Position numbers and translations under genes: made by a program. Below the pieces are notes generated by a model that worked only from the letters and a program-made list of their open reading frames with translations, did no database searches and had not been told where the DNA came from. 20,732 nt of DNA from Myxococcales bacterium (GTDB lineage Bacteria; Myxococcota_A; UBA9042), in NCBI GenBank assembly GCA_037441385.1, contig JBBISH010000114.1:1-20732 (forward strand), read 5' to 3'. Positions 1,689 through 20,732 of this stretch are shown here, piece by piece. The stretch's first letter is position 1. Each line of letters starts with the position of its first letter.

Positions 1689-1891
1689 CTGCACTGCTTT
1701 TGCGTGGATGATCAAGGCATTATGAATCCATCTTGGCGAATTGCCCGCACGGGCAGTGGCGGTAGATCGCGCCGCGGCGAGCGGGCTTAGTGACAGTATC
1801 ATGATGCAGTTAGCCTGCAATTGGGCGTTCGGAACCGGCCCGAAAGGGTCAATTTGGGGGACCTATTGGGGTGTTCTGGCCTTGATTCGCC

Positions 1892-1954
1892 GATTACCAT
1901 ATTGTTACGGCATGTTAAGTCGTATTGACCGTGCCGTCAGTGCAGACGTAGCCT
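1892..1954 (+). promoter_or_regulatory. candidate sigma70 promoter with upstream direct repeats for the cytochrome operon
   Basis: TTGACC (1925-1930), 18 nt, TAGCCT (1949-1954); GATTAC/TGTTAC/TGTTAA repeats at 1892/1903/1913. Confidence 0.45.
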
Positions 1955-2013
1955 GCCTTTGCTCTCGCCGTCCAATGCCAAGTTGGGCCGGCAGCCGCAA
2001 GGGGGGGAGCGCC

Positions 2014-2466
2014 GTGAAAGAGCCGTCCGCTTCGCCAAATTCAGCCGCAAGATTGAAGGATTCCACTCGCGGTTGGGCACGTGCCGCTTGGCGCTGGGCG
2101 TGGGCGATCGCGGCTGCGGCGCTGGTTGTGTGCGGCACGGTGGGGCCGACCGGTAGCGCGCGGGCAGAGAGTCCGGCCGCCAAGCCGCGGCCTTGGCTGG
2201 CACCCGTTCCGGCCGAGCGCGCCAATTCGTCGCACGCGCCGTACGACCTGGGCGACTGCCGCGCCTGCCATTTGCGATCGGACCCCAAGGATCCAGGGCC
2301 GCCGCGCGAAGCCATTCCGGCGAGCTGCGTAGCGTGCCACGAAGAAGTGGGCACGTTGACCAAGGCGCCGCGCGCCAAGGGCAAGAAACGTCATCCCGGG
2401 CCGCGGGCGGGATGCGCGCTGTGCCATAACCCACACAACTCCGCAAAGTTACACTTGTTGCTTTGA
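2014..2466 (+). CDS. small exported triheme cytochrome c (doubled-CXXCH / cytochrome c3-like family)
   Basis: CRACH, CVACH and CALCHNPH; hydrophobic signal segment; GTG start preceded by GGGGAG. Confidence 0.8.
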   Translation: MKEPSASPNSAARLKDSTRGWARAAWRWAWAIAAAALVVCGTVGPTGSARAESPAAKPRPWLAPVPAERANSSHAPYDLGDCRACHLRSDPKDPGPPREAIPASCVACHEEVGTLTKAPRAKGKKRHPGPRAGCALCHNPHNSAKLHLLL

Positions 2467-2553
2467 TCGATTGGAGCCGACCTGCGGCTGCCATTTGGGC
2501 GCGCAGGTGGGGTCGCCAAGCGGAACACTTCGGAACCGCTGCAAGAGGAGATC

Positions 2554-3621
2554 ATGAAGTACCTACCCGCTGTGATCACGTTCGTGTTGTCGGCAAGCCT
2601 GGTGGCTGCGATCGGCGCGGGCGCCGAGCCGCCGGCCAAAGACAAGAAGCCTGCCCCCGCGGCGCCGCACAAGTCCGTCTCGGTGGCGCCCGTCAAGGGA
2701 ACCGCGGTGTCGAGCCACGGGCCGTACGAGGCCGGCGACTGCAGCCTGTGCCACCAGGGCAAAGACCTCAAGAACCCAGGCCCCGTTGCGGGGCCCATCA
2801 ACAAGGTGTGCTTCTCGTGCCACGAGGACATGCAAGACTTGATGGGCAAAGCGAAAGTCAGGCACCGCATCGCCGAAGAAGCCTGTACCAACTGCCACAA
2901 CCCGCACAACTCGATGAGCCGCAAACTGCTGCACGCCGATGTGCCGACCATGTGCCTGGACTGCCACGCCAACGTGAAGACGGCGATCGGCGCGAGCGTC
3001 AAGCACGAGGCCATGACCACGGGGCGCGGCTGCATGAATTGCCACAACCCGCACGCGTCGAACGTGGAGCACATGCTGACACGCCTGCCGTTTGACCAGT
3101 GCGTGGGCTGTCACGACAAGGACGACGTGGTCGATTCTGCGGGCAAGCCCCTGACCAACTACAAGAAATTGCTCGCCGAGAACCCGGTGCACCACGCCCC
3201 CGTGGCGGGCAAGGACTGCTCGAGCTGCCACCAGCCCCACGGCAGCGAGAATTTTAGACTGCTAGTGGCGCCCTACCCGGCGCAGTTCTATTCGCCTTTC
3301 GATCCAGCCAAGTACGCGCTCTGCTTTACCTGCCATGACGACAAGATGGTGACCGCGGCCGAGACGACCACCGCGACGCGCTTCCGCGACGGGTCGCGAA
3401 ACCTGCACTTCGTCCACGTCAACAACCCCAGCCGCGGTCGGACCTGCCGAGCGTGCCACGAAGTCCACGCTTCCAAGCAGCCTTTCCAGGTGCGCGACGG
3501 CGTGCCGTTTGGCCCCAAAGGCTGGATCTTGAAAGTGAACTTCAAGGCCAACCCCGACGGCGGCACCTGCGACAAGACCTGTCACACGGCCAAGAGCTAC
3601 GTCAACACCGTCAAGAAATAG
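2554..3621 (+). CDS. periplasmic multiheme cytochrome c, 9 CxxCH + 1 CxxxCH (about 10 hemes)
   Basis: Signal peptide, RBS GAGGAG; CSLCH, CFSCH, CTNCH, CLDCH, CMNCH, CVGCH, CSSCH, CFTCH, CRACH, terminal CDKTCH; repeated CHxPH motifs and FRDGxRNLH. Confidence 0.92.
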   Translation: MKYLPAVITFVLSASLVAAIGAGAEPPAKDKKPAPAAPHKSVSVAPVKGTAVSSHGPYEAGDCSLCHQGKDLKNPGPVAGPINKVCFSCHEDMQDLMGKAKVRHRIAEEACTNCHNPHNSMSRKLLHADVPTMCLDCHANVKTAIGASVKHEAMTTGRGCMNCHNPHASNVEHMLTRLPFDQCVGCHDKDDVVDSAGKPLTNYKKLLAENPVHHAPVAGKDCSSCHQPHGSENFRLLVAPYPAQFYSPFDPAKYALCFTCHDDKMVTAAETTTATRFRDGSRNLHFVHVNNPSRGRTCRACHEVHASKQPFQVRDGVPFGPKGWILKVNFKANPDGGTCDKTCHTAKSYVNTVKK

Positions 3622-3635
3622 CCAGGAGGCAAAAG

Positions 3636-4460
3636 ATGCTGCGCAATTTGAAGTTTCTGTTGCTGGCGGCGGCGGTGGCGGCCTGGCATGTCCCGGTCGA
3701 CGCTTCGAGCCGGACGCCGATCGGGCAAGTGATCGAGAACCCAGACCTGCCCAAGGTGGGCGGCGGCAAAATCAAGGCTTGGGGCGACGCGACCGCCAAT
3801 GTGATGGTGTTTTTTCGGCCCGGCCAAGAACACTCGCAGGTCGTGCTGAAGGAGTTGGCCAGCTTGGAGCGCGACTTGAACGGCAAGTCGATCCGCTGGG
3901 CAGGGATCGTCTCCGATCGCTACAAGGCTGATGAAATTCTTGCAGATCTCAAGACCGCGGATGCCAAGTTCAACGTAGGGCTCGACGCGGACGACGCCTA
4001 CTACTCGAGCCTGGGCCTGACCCTGATGCCCGAGGTTGCGCTGGTGGCCAAGAACGGCAAGCTCTTGAAAGTCATTCCGTTTGCCAAGGTGAACTACCGC
4101 GAGATGATCAAGGCAGAACTGCGGTTTGTCTTGGGCGAGATCAGCGAGGCTGAACTGCAGGCCGCGCTCAACCCGGATGCTCCGGTGGCCAAAGCGGAGC
4201 ACTCGACGGCTCGCCGCCACATCAAGATGGCCGAGCTGATGCTGAACTCCGGCAACGTCGACAAGGCGTTGGAGTCGGCCAAGACCGCCGTCCAGCAAGC
4301 GCCGGATCTTGCGGCAGCGCATAGCGTTTTGGGCGCGTGTCTGGCCGCCAAGGGCGACTGCAAGGCGGCGATCGCGGCGTTTGACGAGGCGCTGAAACTG
4401 GACAAAGCCGACTCGCGCGCGCTGGAAGGCAAGAAGACCTGCGCAGACAAGGCCAAGTAG
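3636..4460 (+). CDS. exported protein with redoxin/thioredoxin-like fold (no CxxC) and C-terminal TPR repeats
   Basis: RBS AGGAGG, signal peptide, AhpC/TSA-like pattern (VMVFFRPGQEHS...LGLTLMPEVALVAKNGKL), TPR helices (ALESAKTAVQQAPDLAAAHSVLG...AIAAFDEALKLD). Confidence 0.75.
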   Translation: MLRNLKFLLLAAAVAAWHVPVDASSRTPIGQVIENPDLPKVGGGKIKAWGDATANVMVFFRPGQEHSQVVLKELASLERDLNGKSIRWAGIVSDRYKADEILADLKTADAKFNVGLDADDAYYSSLGLTLMPEVALVAKNGKLLKVIPFAKVNYREMIKAELRFVLGEISEAELQAALNPDAPVAKAEHSTARRHIKMAELMLNSGNVDKALESAKTAVQQAPDLAAAHSVLGACLAAKGDCKAAIAAFDEALKLDKADSRALEGKKTCADKAK

Positions 4461-4530
4461 CCGCGTCCCAAGGCGGAGTCGCTCATTTTGGGCGATTGGG
4501 GCAGGATTGGGCCGAGATGGGGAGGCTGGG

Positions 4531-6510
4531 ATGCGTGTGTGCTGCGGTTCGTGCAAAACCTGGTATCGCGCCACCACGGGCCAGGCCCTGGCACCGGGCG
4601 AGCGCATCGTGGCCCAGTGTCCACGCTGCGGGAGCGACATGCTCTTGACGGGCGGCCTTGGCGACGACGTATCCAGTGCTGGCTTGGCCAGTGCCGACTT
4701 GGCCAGTGCCGACTTGGCCAGTGCCGACTTGGCCAACGAAGCGGCAACTGCGGCGGCAAGCCCCCATGTTTTGGCGCAGCCTGTGGTTCTGGAAGAAGAC
4801 GAACAGGGCGGCCTGGAGCCCCTCGATCAAGACGACGAGTTGGAAGAAGGCCGGGCCATCACCGAACGCGTCTCGGAGGCGGCGTTTGCTGCCGTGGCCG
4901 CCGCGGACGCCGCGTTGACTGCGGCGGCTGAAGAAGTCCCCACAGAATCAATCGATGCGGGTCATCGCGATACCGTGCCAGCCCCAGCGCCGGAACTTGC
5001 TGAAGGTCCGACTCCGGTTCAAGGCAAAGCCCAGGGCCATGGCGGGCGCGGTGGCAAGAAGCGCAAGGACAAGGGGCGCAAGCAGACTGCCGTCGCCGTC
5101 GCACACGACACGGCCCCGATCCCGGCAGAGACCGCCCTGGTCAGCGCGCCGCCGGTTGCAACGGATGGCGAGCAAGCTCTGGCCACTCCGACAGAACGCG
5201 TGGATTTGCCTGCGGTCCCGGAAGAGGACATGCCCGCCGTTGCGGTCGAGCCGGTCGAGCCAGATCCGGCAGTGGCCGAGGCGCACGAAGTGCCGATCGC
5301 CGTGGTCGCCGTCCCCCCAGCCACCGAGGACGAAGCCTGGCCCGAAGACGAGACCGGCGCGATCCTGTCCACTGGCTCGATTACAGCAAGGACGCCCAGT
5401 CCGTTTGCCTCCACAGCGTCGGCCGACGTAGCGCCCCCGCCCGCGGCAGCCGAAGCGAAGGCGCCTGCAGCCGAATCGCCGGCGGCAACGGTCTCGCCCG
5501 TGGTGGCTGCAGCCGCTGCGAGCTCGGCCCTACCGGTGGCCACGCCCAAGGTGTTTACCCACCCGCGCATCCTGCCTGTGCCCGTTGGCCCAAAGCCGCG
5601 CGGGGCTCCGGCCGGGCGAACTGGCGACGGGCGAACGGGGTCGCGCTCGGGGCCGATCGCCAAGAATTCCAGCGGAAATGCCAAGTTATGGAGCGGCCTG
5701 GGGCTGGTGGCCGCGTTGGCGCTTGGGGCCGTGGTGGCGCTGTCGAACTCGAAGCCCAGCACGCCGGCCGCGGCACCGGCCGAAACCCCGGCTGCGCAAG
5801 GTGAGCCTGCTGCCCCGGAATCCAGAGCCGCTGTCGCTGCGCCCGCACCTGCCGCACCCGCGACCGTCGCACCTGCGCCAGCGAGCCCCGCAGAGCCCAA
5901 GCCCAGTGCCGAACCCGCGGCCCCCGCCGTGCCGGCAGCTGCGGCAGAGGCCCAGGCACCGGCTGCCAAGCCTGCAGAAACAAAGCCTGGTGCCGAGGCT
6001 CAGGCCGGTGCGGAACCCAAGCCCAGTGCCGAGCCCAAGGTCGCGGCCGAGCTCAAGGCTGGCGACGACAGCAAGTCCGGGGCAGACGCCAAACCGCACG
6101 AGTCCAAGGGAGCCAAGGCCGAAAGTGGCGGCAAGAAGGCCACCGCGGCCGGCGAGACCGCCCCGCCCGACACGCCGGCAAAGGCCGCCGGGCCCGCCCC
6201 AGAGCCCGCGCCCGCGGGGCCGGCGGGACTGGACAGCGACGCGATCGAAGAAGGCCTGGTCCGCATCAAGCCCGGCGTGCGGATGTGCGCGCGCGCCGAG
6301 GAGCGCCGCAACCCAGAAGCCGCGCTCACTTCGGTGACGCTGAGCATCACGGTGGCGCCGTCGGGCGATGTGACCGCGGTGACCATGACCGGCGTCGTCG
6401 CGACCAGCGAGCTTGGCAAGTGCATTCGGGCCGCAGTCGATCGCGTCACCTTCCCGCACTTTGACGGCAAACCGCAAAGCATCAAGAAGACGTTTGATTT
6501 GGCAAAATAG
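4531..6510 (+). CDS. zinc-ribbon / single-TM / AgmX-PglI (TonB-C-like) C-terminal domain protein, GltJ/AgmX-like architecture
   Basis: N-terminal CGSC...CPRC zinc ribbon, acidic and Pro/Ala linker, TM segment LWSGLGLVAALALGAVVAL, Pro/Ala/Lys spacer, C-terminal domain ending LGKCIRAAVDRVTFPHFDG. RBS GGAGG at 4521. Confidence 0.75.
   Translation: MRVCCGSCKTWYRATTGQALAPGERIVAQCPRCGSDMLLTGGLGDDVSSAGLASADLASADLASADLANEAATAAASPHVLAQPVVLEEDEQGGLEPLDQDDELEEGRAITERVSEAAFAAVAAADAALTAAAEEVPTESIDAGHRDTVPAPAPELAEGPTPVQGKAQGHGGRGGKKRKDKGRKQTAVAVAHDTAPIPAETALVSAPPVATDGEQALATPTERVDLPAVPEEDMPAVAVEPVEPDPAVAEAHEVPIAVVAVPPATEDEAWPEDETGAILSTGSITARTPSPFASTASADVAPPPAAAEAKAPAAESPAATVSPVVAAAAASSALPVATPKVFTHPRILPVPVGPKPRGAPAGRTGDGRTGSRSGPIAKNSSGNAKLWSGLGLVAALALGAVVALSNSKPSTPAAAPAETPAAQGEPAAPESRAAVAAPAPAAPATVAPAPASPAEPKPSAEPAAPAVPAAAAEAQAPAAKPAETKPGAEAQAGAEPKPSAEPKVAAELKAGDDSKSGADAKPHESKGAKAESGGKKATAAGETAPPDTPAKAAGPAPEPAPAGPAGLDSDAIEEGLVRIKPGVRMCARAEERRNPEAALTSVTLSITVAPSGDVTAVTMTGVVATSELGKCIRAAVDRVTFPHFDGKPQSIKKTFDLAK
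4683..4735 (+). repeat. perfect 15-bp tandem repeat, 3.5 copies, in frame (LASAD)
   Basis: CTTGGCCAGTGCCGA x3 plus CTTGGCCA. Confidence 0.95.
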
Positions 6511-15908: not shown

Positions 15909-16697
15909 ATGAACCCAACCTTGATCCTTGGCTGCGCCGCTGTCTTGGCCCTCAGCGCGTGTGGCAGCTCCACCAGTAGCAACGCCACCACCCCCGATAG
16001 CACCAGTGGCGACAGCAGCTTGAGCGACGCCGCCGCCGACGCCAGCGGCCAAGACACCGGCAGCGCCGACGCCAAACAAGATGCCCTGCCCGACAGCGCC
16101 AGCGACGGCAGCTCTGCAGATACCACCCCAGCGGATACCGCCACCGGCGACACGGCAGTGGCCGACAGCACCCAAGCGGACACCAGCGACACGGCCGCCG
16201 TAGACACCAGCACCGACGTGGCCAGCGACAGTGCTGCGGACGCCACCGACGCCAGCCTGCCCGAGGGCGCATGCACGGACGAACAACCTTGCACTAAGCC
16301 CAGTTGGGCGTCGTGCGCCCCGGCCGGCAGCTTCATGGGCTGCGGCATCTGCCAAAAGGAAGTGCCGGGCTGCAGCAGCGACGCCGAGTGCGCGAGCACC
16401 GCCAACGGCATCTGCATTGCGTCGCCGAACGACTGCCTGTGCGAACCGCACCCAGTCTGCCACGCCGGCTGCGCCGCCAACAGCGAGTGCGGCGAAGGCC
16501 AGGTGTGTGCCAGCGACCACCACTGCGTCAGCAAGACCTGCGCCGCCAAGGCCGACTGCCCGTCGATGTTCGACTGTGGCAGCGACGGCAAATGCGCACG
16601 TCGACTCTGCAAGGCCAGCGGCGAGTGCGGCGGCGGCTTCTGCGTGACCGGCCTGTGCTGGGTCAAGCCGGGCGAGTGCCAGTTGCCGGTACCGTAG
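15909..16697 (+). CDS. cysteine-rich repeat lipoprotein with Asp/Ser/Thr/Ala linker
   Basis: Lipobox LSAC, about 100-aa acidic linker, then 24 Cys in C-x5-C-x4/5-C-x4/5-C style repeats; RBS GAGG. Confidence 0.85.
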   Translation: MNPTLILGCAAVLALSACGSSTSSNATTPDSTSGDSSLSDAAADASGQDTGSADAKQDALPDSASDGSSADTTPADTATGDTAVADSTQADTSDTAAVDTSTDVASDSAADATDASLPEGACTDEQPCTKPSWASCAPAGSFMGCGICQKEVPGCSSDAECASTANGICIASPNDCLCEPHPVCHAGCAANSECGEGQVCASDHHCVSKTCAAKADCPSMFDCGSDGKCARRLCKASGECGGGFCVTGLCWVKPGECQLPVP

Positions 16698-16781
16698 ACC
16701 GCTCGCTAAGCGAAGTGCCGGCCGCCGCGGCCCGCGGGTCGGCCGTGACAAGACCGTGGCAAATGGCAACCGCGGGCAGGC

Positions 16782-16809
16782 TTGCCCGGCGTCGTCGGCC
16801 GTCTAGCAT
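16782..16809 (+). promoter_or_regulatory. candidate promoter for the precursor/radical SAM pair
   Basis: TTGCCC-16-TAGCAT, 37 nt before ATG 16847. Confidence 0.4.
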
Positions 16810-16846
16810 GGGTCGACCGCGTGCTACTCACGCACGGAGACCTGCG

Positions 16847-17290
16847 ATGGCAGAGACTTCGACTCCTCGCCGCTCGGTGTTGCTGCGCGGCGCATCGGTG
16901 CTGGCCGGCAGTTGGCTGGCCGTCCGGACCGGCGCCGTCTTGGGCCTGGGCGCCCTGATCGATGCCTGTGGCGCTCCGGAGCGCGCCAACAAGTATGGCG
17001 GCCCGCCCATGGAGCCCGAGCCGGCCAAGTACGGTGGGCCGGTCCAGCCAGAGGGGCCGCAGGAATCCCCAGGCGGTGGCGAGAAATACGGTGGTCCTCC
17101 AGGGGGCCCGGCCGAAGCCGACGCGCCCAAGCCGGAAGAGATGGCCAAGAAGCGGCCGCCCAGGCCTGCCAAGTACGGCGGGCCGCCGCCCAAACCGGCC
17201 CCGCCCAGGCCAGATCCGCCCAAGCCCAAGTACGGTGGACCGCCGCAAGCCGACAAGTATGGTGGTCCGCCCAGCCGGGATGATTTGTAG
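16847..17290 (+). CDS. putative radical-SAM-modified precursor: Tat-type lipoprotein with six KYGGP repeats
   Basis: RBS GGAGA; 147 aa; PRRSVLL twin-arginine-like motif, hydrophobic stretch, LIDAC41G lipobox-like site; KYGGP at K49, K61, K80, K109, K128, K137; stop overlaps the next start (TAGTG). Confidence 0.85.
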   Translation: MAETSTPRRSVLLRGASVLAGSWLAVRTGAVLGLGALIDACGAPERANKYGGPPMEPEPAKYGGPVQPEGPQESPGGGEKYGGPPGGPAEADAPKPEEMAKKRPPRPAKYGGPPPKPAPPRPDPPKPKYGGPPQADKYGGPPSRDDL

Positions 17291-18426
17291 TGGCGGCGCT
17301 TGACGTTCTCCACCACGATCCGCGCCGGTTCCGCGTGCGCAACTTTGCGCAATTGTTGCGCGCCCGCAAGGACGCCCAGGTCCGCCGCGACACGGCCGCG
17401 CAGCCAGACATGACCTATCTGTTCTGGGAATGCACGCGCCGCTGCAACTTGCGCTGTGCCCATTGCGGCTCGTCGTGCGAGGGGCGCTCGCCGGGCCAAG
17501 AGCTGACCACCCAAGAGGTGTGCGACGCGCTGGACACCATTGCCCAGGACTTTGACGCGTCGCGTATTTTCGTGTCGATCACCGGCGGCGAGCCCTTGGT
17601 GCGCAAGGACTTGTACCAAGTGGTGCGGCACATGACCACCTTGGGCATGCGCACCTGCATCGTGAGCAACGGCACCCTGCTGGGCGCCGAGCAGGCCAAG
17701 GCGCTGTACGAAGCCGGCATGCGCACGGCCAGCATCAGCATCGACGGCGATCGCGGCAGCCACGAGGCGGTGCGCGGCGCCGACACCTGGCACAAGTCCG
17801 TGCAGGCCCTGCGCCATGCCCGCGAAGCTGGCTTTGACACGGTTGAAGCGATCACCTGCGTGCGACCCGCCAACCTAGAGGAATTGCCCAGCCTGGAGGC
17901 GGTGTTCCAAGAGGCCGGCGCGAATCTGTGGCGGCTCATCACCATCGACAAGATGGGCCGGGCCAAAGACGCTGACGCCGAGATTTGGCTGAATCCACCG
18001 CAGATTCGCCGGTTGTTGCAGTTCGTGGCCGATCGCCGGGCCCAGCGACGCCCCGGCGACCTGGGGATCAGCTTCTCGTGCGGCGGGTTCCTGGGCCTGG
18101 AGGTCGAGACGGCCGTGCGCCAGCGCCACAACCAATGCGGGGCCGGGTTGACCGCGGCCTCGATCTTGCACGACGGCAGGGTAAGCGCCTGCCCATCGCT
18201 GCCCGACAGCTGGGCCCAGGGCAGCATCCGCGAGCGCCGATTCTCGGAAATCTGGCGCGATCGCTTCGAGCAGCACCGCAGCTTTGAATGGCGCCGCGCG
18301 GGCGCCTGCGCGGACTGCGATTGGTTTGGAGCGTGCCTGGGCGGCGGCCTGCACGAGCGCCTGGTCCAGCCTGACGATCATTGCTGGCTCGAACGCATCG
18401 GCTGCGGCGTGAACGGCGGCGCATAG
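17290..18426 (+). CDS. radical SAM/SPASM peptide maturase, resembles the rSAM/lipoprotein-system (TIGR04133-like) splicease clade
   Basis: LFWECTRRCNLRCAHCGS (CxxxCxxC), ITGGEPL, SISIDG, MGRA, SCGGFLG, SPASM CGAG...DGRVSACP...CADCDWFGACLGG. Confidence 0.9.
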   Translation: MAALDVLHHDPRRFRVRNFAQLLRARKDAQVRRDTAAQPDMTYLFWECTRRCNLRCAHCGSSCEGRSPGQELTTQEVCDALDTIAQDFDASRIFVSITGGEPLVRKDLYQVVRHMTTLGMRTCIVSNGTLLGAEQAKALYEAGMRTASISIDGDRGSHEAVRGADTWHKSVQALRHAREAGFDTVEAITCVRPANLEELPSLEAVFQEAGANLWRLITIDKMGRAKDADAEIWLNPPQIRRLLQFVADRRAQRRPGDLGISFSCGGFLGLEVETAVRQRHNQCGAGLTAASILHDGRVSACPSLPDSWAQGSIRERRFSEIWRDRFEQHRSFEWRRAGACADCDWFGACLGGGLHERLVQPDDHCWLERIGCGVNGGA

Positions 18427-18481
18427 CGGCACGGCTGCCGCGACATTTGCTGAATATTCCCGAATTTACCTTGTGGCCGGT

Positions 18482-18510
18482 TTGACCCAGGCGCCGCCGA
18501 CTGGCAGCCT
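18482..18510 (+). promoter_or_regulatory. candidate sigma70 promoter
   Basis: TTGACC-17-CAGCCT with TG extension; AT-rich tract at 18444-18470. Confidence 0.45.
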
Positions 18511-18581
18511 TGGGGATCGCGTCCCACTGCCCGGCCCAGCGACCCCGAACTTGGCAGGCACGACCGAGAGTGAGGCAAGAG

Positions 18582-20144
18582 ATGGCGGCAACGGTAGGTC
18601 AACTTGGGCAAATCGCCCGCGCGCCGGCAACCTGGAGTAGGGAGCGGGCCGAGCGGGCTCTGCAGTTGCTGGCGTTGCAGCAGCGCCTTGGCGAGCAACC
18701 CGGCCTGGCGGCGATGCTGGCCCTGCTGGCTGGGGCCTTGGAAGCCCTGCTTCCCGTACGCGATCGCGCCTCGCTGGCGCTGACGGACCAAGACGGTCAG
18801 TCGCTGCGCGTGTATCGACTGCTGCCGGCGCTGGGCGAGTTGCCCGACGAACTGCCGCGGGTCCGCGGCGAAGGCACGGTGGTGGGCGCGGTGGCGCGCG
18901 ACGGCCGGGCGCGGGTCGTGGCCGACGTGCGCAGCGACGATCAGTTGCGATTCGGCCGGGCGTCGCACGACGGGGTCCGCTCGACGGTGTCGGTGCCCGT
19001 GCGCGTCGCCGGTCAGGTGGTGGGTGTGCTCAATGCGGGTTCCAAGACGATTGGCGCCTGCACAGAGGCGATGATCGACGAACTTGCCGAGATTGCTACG
19101 GTCATCGGCCCGGCCCTGTACGCCGCCGAGCGCGCGCTGCATGTGGGCGACGCGGTGGCGGTGCCAGGTCCCATGGCCCCGCTGGCGGCGGAGCTGGTGG
19201 CCGAAAGTCCGGCGATGCGGACGCTGCTGGCCCAGGCGCGGCGGGCCGCGGGCAGCGACGCCACCGTGCTGCTCACCGGCGAGACAGGGGTGGGCAAGTC
19301 GATGCTGGCCAAGGCGATTCACGGCTGGAGCCCGCGCGGAAGTGGGCCCTTTGCGGCGGTCCACGTGGCGGATCTGCCGGCGACGCTGGTGGAGTCGGAG
19401 CTGTTCGGCCACGAGCGCGGCGCCTTTACCGGGGCGACGCAGCGGCGGCTGGGCCGGTTCGAAGTCGCGCGCGGCGGCACGCTGTTCTTGGACGAGATTG
19501 GCGAGGCCCCGCTGCCGGTGCAGTCCAAGCTGCTGCGGGTCACCCAAGACGGTCACTTTGAGCGCGTGGGCGGCAGCGCGACCCTCCACACCGACGCGCG
19601 GTTGATTGCGGCCACGCATCGCGACCTGCACCAAGCGGCCGAGGCGGGTCTGTTCCGCCGCGACCTGCTGTATCGCCTGGAGATCGTGGCACTGCAGGTG
19701 CCGCCCCTGCGCGATCGGCCAGAGGATTTGCTGCCGTTGGCCAGGACGATTCTGCAGCGCTTGGGCCGCCAACATGGACGCAATCTGCGCCTGGCGCCGC
19801 AAGCCGAGGTGCGCCTGCGCGGTCACAGCTGGCCCGGCAACATCCGCGAGTTGGAAGCGGTGTTGACCCGCGCGGCCCTTCTGGAAGAAACCGCAGAATT
19901 GCAGATCAATTCCCTGAGGGGCCATGCCGCGGCACCCACGCAGGCGGCTCGCTACGACTGGCCGACGCGCGACGAGCACGAGCGACGCTACTTGCTGCAG
20001 GTGTTGGCTCACACCGAGGGCCGCATCGAAGGACCGCGCGGGGCCGCGAAATTGCTAGGGATGATGCCCTCGACACTGCGCAGTCGCTGCCAGCGCCTGG
20101 GCGTGTCGCTGCCAAGCGCGCGCCAGGCCAAGGGGACGCCATGA
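18582..20144 (+). CDS. sigma54-dependent enhancer-binding protein, GAF-AAA+-HTH (FhlA/NifA-like)
   Basis: GAF domain, [39 protein letters not shown], FhlA-type [13 protein letters not shown]. Confidence 0.93.
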
Positions 20145-20732
20145 ACCGCCCGCGATCGCCGCATTTTTCCGCCGGCAAGCTCCTCTTGGCGGTCGCGGTG
20201 GCGGCCTTGACGGCGGCTGCAGGCTGCGAAGCGGGTGCACCGACCCGAGATCACTCGACTGTGCCCGCAGAAGGGGTGTGGTCGGTCGCCCGAGCCGAGA
20301 GCCAGGGCGCCTTGGCCAGCGTTTGGGGCAGTGGCCCCAGCGACGTATGGGCCGCCGGTGGCCGCGTGGGCCGCGGGCTCATCCTGCACAGCGACGGCAA
20401 GACGTGGAGCGAAGTGCCGACGAACCTGCCGGGCTTTGTCTGGTGGATCTATGGGAGCGGCGCCCACGACGTGTTCGCGGTCGGCGAGGCGGGCCTGATC
20501 TGGCACTACGACGGCGCGACCTGGAGTTCCGTGCCCTCTGGCACCACCAAGACGCTGTACGGGCTGTGGGCGGCGGGGCCCAACGACGTTTGGGCGGTGG
20601 GCGGCGACCCCGAGGGCCTGCCCGGCGACGCGGTGCTGCTGCGCGGCAATGCCAAGGGCTTTCAACCCGTTGCCGTACCTAGCGCGTTGCTGCCGGCGGC
20701 GCTGTTCAAGATCTATGGCTCGCCAGCGGGCG
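20141..20732 (+). CDS. beta-propeller repeat lipoprotein (partial, runs off the window; absent from the ORF track)
   Basis: ATGA overlap with the upstream stop; lipobox AAGC; repeats VWGSGPSDVWAAG..ILHSDGKTW / IYGSGAHDVFAVG..IWHYDGATW / LWAAGPNDVWAVG. Confidence 0.85.
   Translation, partial: MNRPRSPHFSAGKLLLAVAVAALTAAAGCEAGAPTRDHSTVPAEGVWSVARAESQGALASVWGSGPSDVWAAGGRVGRGLILHSDGKTWSEVPTNLPGFVWWIYGSGAHDVFAVGEAGLIWHYDGATWSSVPSGTTKTLYGLWAAGPNDVWAVGGDPEGLPGDAVLLRGNAKGFQPVAVPSALLPAALFKIYGSPAG

Follow-up and report, generated by a model that had tools for sequence, protein, structure and literature searches.

What does a small, apparently exported protein with all of its Tyr residues in one repeated motif do beside a gene for a radical S-adenosylmethionine (SAM) enzyme, and does the enzyme act on it? 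The question is raised by two overlapping genes in a stretch of 20,732 nt, here called the window in its full length (contig JBBISH010000114.1 of assembly GCA_037441385.1, from a Myxococcales bacterium). The first open reading frame (ORF), designated here the precursor gene, codes for 147 residues with six KYGGP motifs, and its stop codon (TAG, 17288-17290) shares one base, at 17290, with the GTG start codon of a gene for a radical SAM/SPASM enzyme. An earlier note on this DNA had described both the overlap and the six motifs that hold the only six Tyr residues of the ORF; translation and a motif count reproduced them, with six of six Tyr inside KYGGP. The occurrence of a YG-repeat ORF next to a radical SAM gene is thus confirmed as real and strongly non-random. 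From comparison of homologous loci, the two genes appear to form a conserved, portable and self-contained two-gene maturation cassette, in which the small protein is probably the substrate of the enzyme at its Tyr-Gly sites. That the reaction is the excision of tyramine, i.e., splicing, is a more tentative proposal, whose chances we put slightly short of even.

Composition-preserving shuffles of the mature part of the precursor (residues 42-147) reached six YG only once in 200,000 trials, and a six-frame translation of the window contained only four scattered xYGxP words outside the precursor ORF. The six copies are irregularly spaced (36, 57, 87, 57 and 27 nt) and differ in their synonymous codons, which indicates conservation of the peptide and not a recent duplication of DNA. 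Immediately outside the motif, DNA identity between copies drops to 67-90 %; the varied codons, the uneven spacing and these diverged flanks rule out a recent tandem repeat as the origin of the copies. A homologue of 72 % identity has the same starting residues and keeps all six KYGGP, plus a seventh. The only Cys of the window precursor is residue 41 (in IDAC), preceded by a Gly/Ala-rich hydrophobic stretch, and Pro makes up 29 % of the residues that follow it.

A profile built on 12 precursors was searched against a word-indexed collection, where it matched 54 proteins, and against 1.84 billion proteins, where it matched 108 representative clusters. Tyr is followed by Gly in 270 of 297 cases in the 54 relatives, which carry 2-10 sites each; Lys precedes 252 of these 270 YG, and 213 are KYGGP. 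At least two YG occur in 102 of the 108 representatives, and one KYGGP or more in 89. Linkers of any length separate the motifs, with a composition that is Pro-rich, acidic, Ser/Thr/Ala-rich or Lys-rich, and the precursors can be aligned only in the N-terminal region (RRSF..., AG.W and Cys) and in the motifs. The motif, and not the linker, is therefore the conserved unit of these proteins. No Pfam or NCBIfam family was found in the precursor relatives tested. The six-fold repetition, which had been singled out as unusual, is not a peculiarity of this locus, given the range of site numbers among relatives. In some Myxococcota KYGGP proteins, an N-terminal CxxC...CPFC zinc ribbon stands before the hydrophobic segment.

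These homologues also bear on whether the precursor gene is a gene at all. High-GC windows contain many spurious ORFs, here for example 16304..17290 and several antisense frames over the same region, and the window precursor itself matched no Pfam or NCBIfam family, so that the small ORF might be a chance open frame in GC-rich DNA next to a solitary radical SAM gene. This explanation is contradicted by 108 representative homologue clusters with the same architecture, by synonymous variation inside a fixed peptide motif, by a GGAG sequence ahead of the ATG and by the shared starting residues of the 72 %-identical orthologue. It was rejected, and we consider its probability negligible. A search of the ESM Atlas with the precursor gave scores of 0.82-0.84, under the level that counts.

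A genome scan yielded 476 confirmed relatives of the enzyme, and the 80 best loci were retained: nine close ones, all from Myxococcota and 52-61 % identical to the window enzyme, and 71 distant ones. The comparison of homologous gene pairs called for by the earlier note gave a clear result, since a YG-repeat ORF is a neighbour of the enzyme gene in all nine close loci. In eight, this ORF is immediately upstream on the same strand and contains 2-7 xYGxP words, nearly all of them KYGGP. The ninth locus (L008, from a bin labelled Haliangium) has instead a divergent ORF of 153 residues with a signal peptide, two LYGVP and three EYGVF[VI]P; this precursor (3271-3732, minus strand, beside the enzyme at 3686-5098, plus strand) is a Lys/Pro-rich chain without a lipobox Cys. 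Where the bounds of the two ORFs are separate, the gap from precursor to enzyme is 6-10 nt. In addition, 14 precursor matches have the same 'longest contig' length as an enzyme match, an indirect sign that the two lie on shared contigs.

Nothing else travels with the two genes. Searching the 80 loci by tblastn with seven other proteins of the window gave no match, and 19 ORFs that flank the pair in relatives fall into unrelated families (Dus, CysS, DnaJ, MlaE, molybdopterin oxidoreductase, adenylate cyclase, OmpA, LysM and others). The cassette contains no PqqD-like or small extra ORF. The layout classical for peptides that ribosomes synthesize and that are then post-translationally modified (RiPPs), with a leader-core precursor, a leader peptidase or exporter and a RiPP recognition element (RRE), is thus absent, only the two genes being conserved, with housekeeping or unrelated genes on either side.

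The 71 distant loci encode enzymes 31-39 % identical to that of the window and are mostly from Bacteroidota, the remainder being from Fibrobacterota, Spirochaetota, Planctomycetota, Bacillota and other Myxococcota. In a six-frame count, each locus had on average 0.94 xYGxP words on the enzyme strand within the 600 nt that surround the enzyme start, against 0.26 in the next upstream bin and 0.00-0.15 in farther bins and on the opposite strand; the control words GY.P, YA.P, FG.P and WG.P were flat across bins. At least one xYGxP occurs within 900 nt upstream of the enzyme in 45 of the 71 loci; for one of the 71, only 102 nt were available. The residue before Tyr was M in 23 cases, E in 11, C in 9, K in 5, I in 4, V in 3, L in 2 and S in 1, and the residue after Gly was V, M, T, P, G or others. 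The Lys that the earlier note regarded as invariant is accordingly a feature of the Myxococcota clade, but not of the family as a whole, where M, E, C, K, I, V or L precede the Tyr. In a tree of 81 enzymes (internal stops in three rows were written as X), the window enzyme and the nine Myxococcota loci form a single clade with support 100 on a stem of 1.65, and the flavour of the motif tracks enzyme clades: CYGMP, MYGVP in Rikenellaceae, EYGTP, and IYGPP in Planctomycetota and Bacillota. Because the flavour follows the enzyme clade and YG is kept throughout, Tyr-Gly is the constant element, with enzyme and site context co-varying.

The format of the partner varies among these loci. In Planctomycetota and Bacillota, it is a small protein with a single IYGPPP between two CxxC zinc-ribbon halves, and this format and that of the Myxococcota zinc-ribbon proteins mentioned above are represented by L051:3698-3970, L072:3409-3828, L073:3509-3817 and L074:3328-3774 and by proteins P0170, P0171, P0177 and P0178. 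A Prevotellaceae locus (L027) has two tandem lipoprotein genes ahead of the enzyme, at 3305-3712 and 3719-3961, with EYGMP and KYGGP in the first and two KYGMP in the second.

The same data allow a different relationship between the two products to be weighed, namely that the genes are co-inherited without the protein being a substrate; the enzyme would act, for example, on a lipid, a cofactor or an envelope component bound by the lipoprotein, and KYGGP would be a structural or adhesive, extensin-like motif. Weak Extensin_2 matches in two relatives (E 0.17 and 0.52) agree with such a motif, and in Bacteroidota relatives the lipobox Cys is often immediately followed by YG (ACYGMP), which might indicate a role of the anchor instead of the chain. 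Nevertheless, the genes are tightly coupled, by overlap or short gaps, and stay together in otherwise unrelated surroundings; the flavour of the motif co-varies with the enzyme clade, YG alone persists from phylum to phylum, the remainder of the partner being completely different, and the fold and nearest families of the enzyme are those of peptide maturases. We therefore regard this explanation as improbable, and the small protein as the likely substrate.

The enzyme has clear matches to the Pfam domains Radical_SAM (PF04055, 81.7 bits) and SPASM (PF13186, 38.5 bits, residues 283-344). In an alignment of 26 enzymes, C52, C56, C59 and C63 are invariant, together with seven Cys in the C-terminal part, as is much of an N-terminal extension of 40 residues. 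A word-indexed search retrieved 417 homologues at E<=1e-20; among the matches listed (the best 120 of the 417), identities were 54-92 % and the named sources were Myxococcales, Polyangiaceae and 'Deltaproteobacteria' metagenome bins. One homologue of 517 residues (P0088, 59 % identical) carries an extra domain, PF18029, according to a precomputed Pfam column. The AlphaFold2 model of the window enzyme (mean predicted local distance difference test score 89, predicted template modelling (TM) score 0.89) places residues 16-37 in a long helix ahead of the barrel; in alignments, this helix is conserved in the family and missing from an annotated Nostoc enzyme of the TIGR04103 family. The closest solved folds were SkfB, BlsE, anSME, SuiB, CteB, PqqE and ChlB, with TM-scores of 0.60-0.68; these are SPASM/twitch enzymes that modify peptides or proteins. 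No solved structure had a close sequence relationship to the enzyme, the best by sequence being BlsE, SkfB and PqqE.

Among NCBIfam models, the best was TIGR04133 (rSAM_w_lipo; 280.1 bits, E 2.2e-83, profile positions 11-335 of 350), followed by AhbD (142 bits), TIGR04053 (133), MftC (133) and TIGR04103 (129.4), the splicease family, which we take to be the same as PlpX IPR026482. The assignment to a TIGR04133-type enzyme made in the earlier note is thus right in that this is the best family by 138 bits, but the score is below the curated cut-off of 425 bits. Scores of 13 relatives point the same way: six Bacteroidota enzymes pass (441.6-582.2 bits) and seven do not, including two KYGGP-clade loci (274 and 293 bits) and five others (250-368 bits). 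On the side of the partner, the upstream ORF of one distant locus (L042) is a full match to TIGR04134, 'radical SAM-associated putative lipoprotein' (118.4 bits, cut-off 39.8), four more upstream ORFs match this model below threshold, and a Parabacteroides distasonis pair is annotated in RefSeq as a radical SAM enzyme and a TIGR04134-type lipoprotein. No TIGR04134 match was obtained with the window precursor or the two clade relatives tested. The Myxococcota pairs share with the TIGR04133/TIGR04134 pairs the gene order, in which the radical SAM/SPASM gene is immediately preceded by a small gene for a signal-peptide protein or a lipoprotein. In contrast to them, the Myxococcota clade as a whole scores 274-293 bits and stands apart on its long stem, and the partner is a disordered Pro-rich chain with an RRSF-type signal and 2-10 KYGGP, whereas the Bacteroidota lipoproteins have a folded, beta-rich domain. 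By sequence, then, the pair is best placed as a divergent Myxococcota branch of the TIGR04133/TIGR04134 family, and not as a member of it by curated cut-offs.

A constant YG behind a free residue recalls the tyramine spliceases. These enzymes excise C8H9NO (135.07 Da) from the Tyr of XYG and leave an alpha-keto-beta-amino amide (from passages of PMC11414181), and sections of this paper and of PMC9811515 give a constant YG with a free preceding X as the target rule. As the Tyr-Gly rule of the present family is the same as this XYG rule, splicease chemistry is favoured. The PlpXY splice tags in Table 1 of PMC10533398 include LYGLPI and GYGVVFP. For PlpX, PcpX and RhaX, the YG is reported to be placed beside SAM and the cluster (PMC11414181). 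A Nostoc plasmid carries a gene annotated as 'nif11-class peptide radical SAM maturase 3' (TIGR04103) beside a Nif11 precursor and a 71-residue ORF in the position of the Y protein, and the precursor ends in LYGLPP after the Gly-Gly (GG) site. The published tags and the Nostoc sequence thus show that the xYGxP context is common to both groups.

Enzyme phylogeny was examined with 8 or 12 annotated plasmid-borne SPASM enzymes as outgroups, in quick searches supported only by the Shimodaira-Hasegawa-like approximate likelihood ratio test (SH-aLRT; a star denotes 95); the sampling comprised a single TIGR04103 sequence and did not extend to experimentally characterised spliceases, AhbD or anSME. 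With 8 outgroups, the TIGR04133 superfamily (98*) was sister to a group of the Nostoc TIGR04103 enzyme, two GDL-type maturases and an Agathobacter sequence (96*), with a joining branch of 94; NirJ, MftC, TIGR04053, TIGR04347 and a PqqD-associated enzyme were on the other side. Adding PqqE and three others gave the same split with a joining branch of 92. In alignments, HCGS, which immediately follows the cluster motif, and DG..x.CPS[LI], within the SPASM region, are common to the superfamily and the TIGR04103/GDL clade and do not occur in MftC, PqqE, NirJ or TIGR04053. Both motifs are among the signatures picked out by eye in the earlier note. A cofactor enzyme of the NirJ, MftC or PqqE type, a grouping named beforehand as one that would speak against the proposal, was rejected because the enzyme groups elsewhere in both trees (SH-aLRT 94 and 92), with AhbD and anSME outside the sampling. 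The GDL-motif maturases (TIGR03913), which are the nearest outgroup together with TIGR04103, are adjoined by DUF1843 peptides with Tyr-Gly or Tyr-Ala words (L084:181-345, L090:758-1471); those of Aureibacter have PYGAG, MYAAS and LYAAG near the N-terminus and that of Azospirillum has AAYGD in its C-terminal half.

The window system resembles the spliceases (PlpX/PlpY, type I; RhaX/RhaA, RcsX and RasX, binary) in having a radical SAM/SPASM enzyme beside an X-Tyr-Gly precursor, in the occurrence of multiple sites per precursor, and in the HCGS and CPS motifs of what is the nearest sampled enzyme clade in the two quick trees. It differs from them in that it has no Nif11/NHLP leader, GG cleavage site, peptidase or exporter, and in that the candidate substrate is an exported protein or lipoprotein with up to ten sites. 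The activating helix of spliceases comes from the Y protein in type I and from the precursor leader in binary types, whereas the window enzyme carries a conserved N-terminal helix of its own, which the Nostoc TIGR04103 enzyme does not have. Binary spliceases work without a Y protein, according to part of PMC11414181.

If the reaction is splicing, the enzyme, which is cytoplasmic, would act on the precursor before export, at each Tyr-Gly, cutting the tyramine equivalent from Tyr and rejoining the backbone. Each Lys-Tyr-Gly would so become a Lys-derived alpha-keto-beta-amino amide (ketoamide), followed by Gly-Gly-Pro. Once exported and lipidated at Cys41, the protein would display as many as six electrophilic ketoamides, each with a Lys side chain, on a flexible tether; most likely they would serve to inhibit trypsin-like serine or cysteine proteases in a reversible covalent manner.

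Export of the precursor through the twin-arginine translocation (Tat) pathway and its lipidation are suggested by features of the N-terminal region, which would be a signal peptide and possibly the recognition region for the enzyme as well. An RR-like motif with hydrophobic residues after it is found in 43 of the 54 precursor relatives, there within the first 25 residues, and in 86 of the 108 representatives; this motif is what the Tat assignment is based on. The Atlas search gave one weak lead. In the alignment of 12 precursors, S10, A20 and C41 are invariant, R8 and W23 are present in at least 90 %, and each of the 12 sequences has a single Cys. A lipobox-like Cys occurs in 39 of the 54 relatives, and some have AxA-type sites instead.

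A role in protease inhibition has both a chemical and a genetic side. Ketoamides are recognised protease warheads (passages of PMC11414181 and PMC9811515), and published spliceotides are inhibitors of serine and cysteine proteases in their spliced form only, according to PMC11626197. The Lys side chain beside the ketoamide would make it a P1-Lys warhead for trypsin-like enzymes. Separately, the precursor profile matched six long proteins (321-498 residues) through 9-22 YGxP repeats, mostly KYG[FTVAIY]P. Five of them (P0207, P0229, P0231, P0247 and P0250; the sixth is P0255), with 6-18 KYGxP per protein, have an N-terminal inhibitor domain of the chagasin family I42 (40.1-49.5 bits, cut-off 27.2). 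Through this fusion, KYGxP repeats are connected with protease inhibition by a route that does not depend on the argument from spliceases. The fusion proteins are like the window precursor in their many K-Y-G-x-P copies, and unlike it in that the repeats are framed by Cys (11-21 per protein), an I42 domain precedes them and there is no signal peptide. No plasmid match to these proteins was found, nor an I42 domain in the 95 sequences examined, and none of the papers listed by a literature search on this subject mentions chagasin. On balance, an envelope-tethered protease inhibitor is a conceivable but rather unlikely product.

Several observations weigh against the reading of the pair as a splicease and its exported substrate, in chemistry as well as in setting. 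The score for TIGR04103 is far below its cut-off (725 bits) and not above those for AhbD, TIGR04053 or MftC, so that the hidden Markov models do not single out the splicease family. The branches joining the family to the TIGR04103 group are under the starred level, in quick trees with one TIGR04103 sequence, and in the tree with 12 outgroups a Paraclostridium sequence on a very long branch joins the family. Among the closest solved folds, SkfB, SuiB (Lys-Trp), CteB, PqqE (Glu-Tyr) and anSME are cross-linking or oxidising enzymes. The near fixation of Lys before YG in the Myxococcota clade, with Pro at +3 in most cases, would also fit a Lys-Tyr cross-link. The model scores, the folds and the Lys agree with another Tyr-directed radical reaction at the same sites, such as epimerisation, C-beta oxidation or the joining of Tyr to the neighbouring Lys or Pro by a C-C or C-O bond (a small cyclophane, -2 Da per site), which would leave the tether stiffened or protected and without ketoamides. 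However, the residues before Tyr and after Gly are both free across the family, Pro at +3 is missing in several relatives (CYGIE, CYGPV), leaving no fixed partner for a cross-link outside Tyr-Gly, and Gly-Gly offers no C-beta for a three-residue cyclophane; in addition, the family adjoins TIGR04103, and not MftC or PqqE, in two trees. We consider a reaction of this kind unlikely, if far from negligible.

The remaining points concern the setting. No protease, transporter or RRE is conserved beside the pair in the 80 loci and their flanking ORFs, and the candidate substrate is an exported protein instead of a leader-core peptide. A strict xYGxP within 900 nt is lacking in 26 of the 71 distant loci, at least ten of which contain an ORF with a signal peptide in which YG stands in different surroundings (ACYGIE, ACYGPV, PVYGVG). 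The Pfam model TAT_signal matched none of 31 precursor family members at E<=1, and the lipobox of the window precursor, IDAC, has Asp at -2 (pattern [LVI][ASTVI][GAS]C). Finally, any link of the I42-KYGxP proteins to a radical SAM enzyme is hypothetical.

Table. Features of the precursor-enzyme gene pair and the evidence on which each was delimited.
Feature	Coordinates	Strand	Details	Basis
Ribosome-binding-like GGAG	16836..16839	+	7 nt 5' of the precursor ATG	Read from sequence
Precursor gene	16847..17290	+	147 residues plus stop; Pro-rich, predicted exported, six KYGGP	Translation, motif count, homologues
N-terminal 41 residues of precursor	16847..16969	+	Twin-arginine-like RRSVLL, hydrophobic stretch with conserved AG.W, lipobox-like IDAC to Cys41	Alignment, n=12 precursors
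KYGGP motif 1	16991..17005	+	Residues 49-53
KYGGP motif 2	17027..17041	+	Residues 61-65
KYGGP motif 3	17084..17098	+	Residues 80-84
KYGGP motif 4	17171..17185	+	Residues 109-113	K109, Y110, G111, P113 invariant, n=12 precursors
KYGGP motif 5	17228..17242	+	Residues 128-132	Y129, G130, G131, P132 invariant, n=12 precursors
KYGGP motif 6	17255..17269	+	Residues 137-141
Radical SAM/SPASM maturase gene (predicted)	17290..18426	+	378 residues, GTG start; extended TIGR04133 family, Myxococcota clade
N-terminal extension of enzyme	17335..17400	+	Predicted long helix, residues 16-37	AlphaFold2 model, alignments
CxxxCxxC radical SAM cluster motif	17443..17466	+	C52, C56, C59, then conserved GS and C63	Invariant, n=26
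SPASM region	18079..18384	+	Seven invariant Cys: C264, C283, C301, C340, C343, C349, C365	n=26

How the pair is transcribed was examined by scanning for promoters and terminators. The only space for a promoter before the precursor gene is a gap of 149 nt (16698-16846). Scans of 16500-18700 for sigma-70 promoters and for terminators returned 0 sites each, and the 111 matches to the sigma-54 consensus in the window are what chance would give (110.9 expected). The candidate promoter that the earlier note had attributed to the pair was thus not recovered. Downstream of the enzyme gene there is a sigma-54 activator with a GAF domain (18510-20144, plus strand), whose stop codon overlaps the ATG of a lipoprotein-like ORF (20141-20731, plus strand) that runs off the end of the window. 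The activator was rejected as a regulator of the cassette because it is not conserved alongside the pair.

The rest of the window is unrelated to the cassette and contains genes for multihaem cytochromes, a histidine kinase with its regulator, DbpA, an amidohydrolase, a DTW protein and the sigma-54 activator. The cytochrome genes (1741-3621, plus strand) are two of c type with paired CXXCH, similar to MtrC/MtrF, and are followed by a gene for a TPR protein. Directly upstream of the cassette (15909-16697, plus strand) lies the gene for a lipoprotein of 262 residues, whose linker is acidic and rich in Ser/Thr/Asp and whose C-terminal half is rich in Cys. This protein weakly matches TIGR04201 (myxobacterial Cys-rich repeat; 19 bits, cut-off 25); among the relatives, it is not a conserved neighbour of the pair.

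The several lines can be combined in a joint reading, which we offer as possible though, taken as a whole, clearly below an even chance. The cassette would make a protein-scale, multivalent spliceotide by means of a stand-alone splicease with a built-in activating helix, without leader or Y protein, and with every KYGGP spliced. The envelope of these Myxococcota would be coated with arrays of Lys-ketoamides, which would serve, on their tether, to shield against trypsin-like proteases of their own, of prey or of competitors, or to act as a decoy for them. In gut Bacteroidota, the whole TIGR04133/TIGR04134 family would act likewise, through ketoamides derived from Met, Glu and Cys. The I42-KYGxP fusions, in turn, would be cytoplasmic or secreted inhibitors with two modes of action, and KYGGP would be the shortest natural splice tag known.

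TIGR04133/TIGR04134 has so far been a named family of unknown function (hypothetical equivalogs in NCBIfam), common in gut and rumen Bacteroidota. A search of the open literature on TIGR04133, TIGR04134 or KYGGP proteins found no relevant paper, and one on tyramine, radical SAM and lipoprotein found nothing relevant. In 2022, Scott and coworkers (Chem 8:2659) reportedly examined all SPASM enzymes in UniProt reference proteomes for neighbours rich in YG and predicted 939 systems, and their list may already cover part of this family. The present analysis provides a concrete, testable substrate rule for the family, a constant Tyr-Gly with a free preceding residue, and reveals a large branch in Myxococcota whose partner protein consists of little beyond repeated KYGGP on a disordered tether. 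Should splicing prove true, backbone beta-amino-acid chemistry would take place on exported cell-surface proteins, and not on secreted peptides, and a leader-independent enzyme with a five-residue tag would be at hand for protein engineering. The native products of spliceotide systems 'remain elusive' in the words of a 2022 review (a passage of PMC9811515), and splicing in this family would point to a native function, the control of proteases at the envelope. If the reaction is other than splicing, these bacteria would carry a new Tyr-Gly-directed radical modification.

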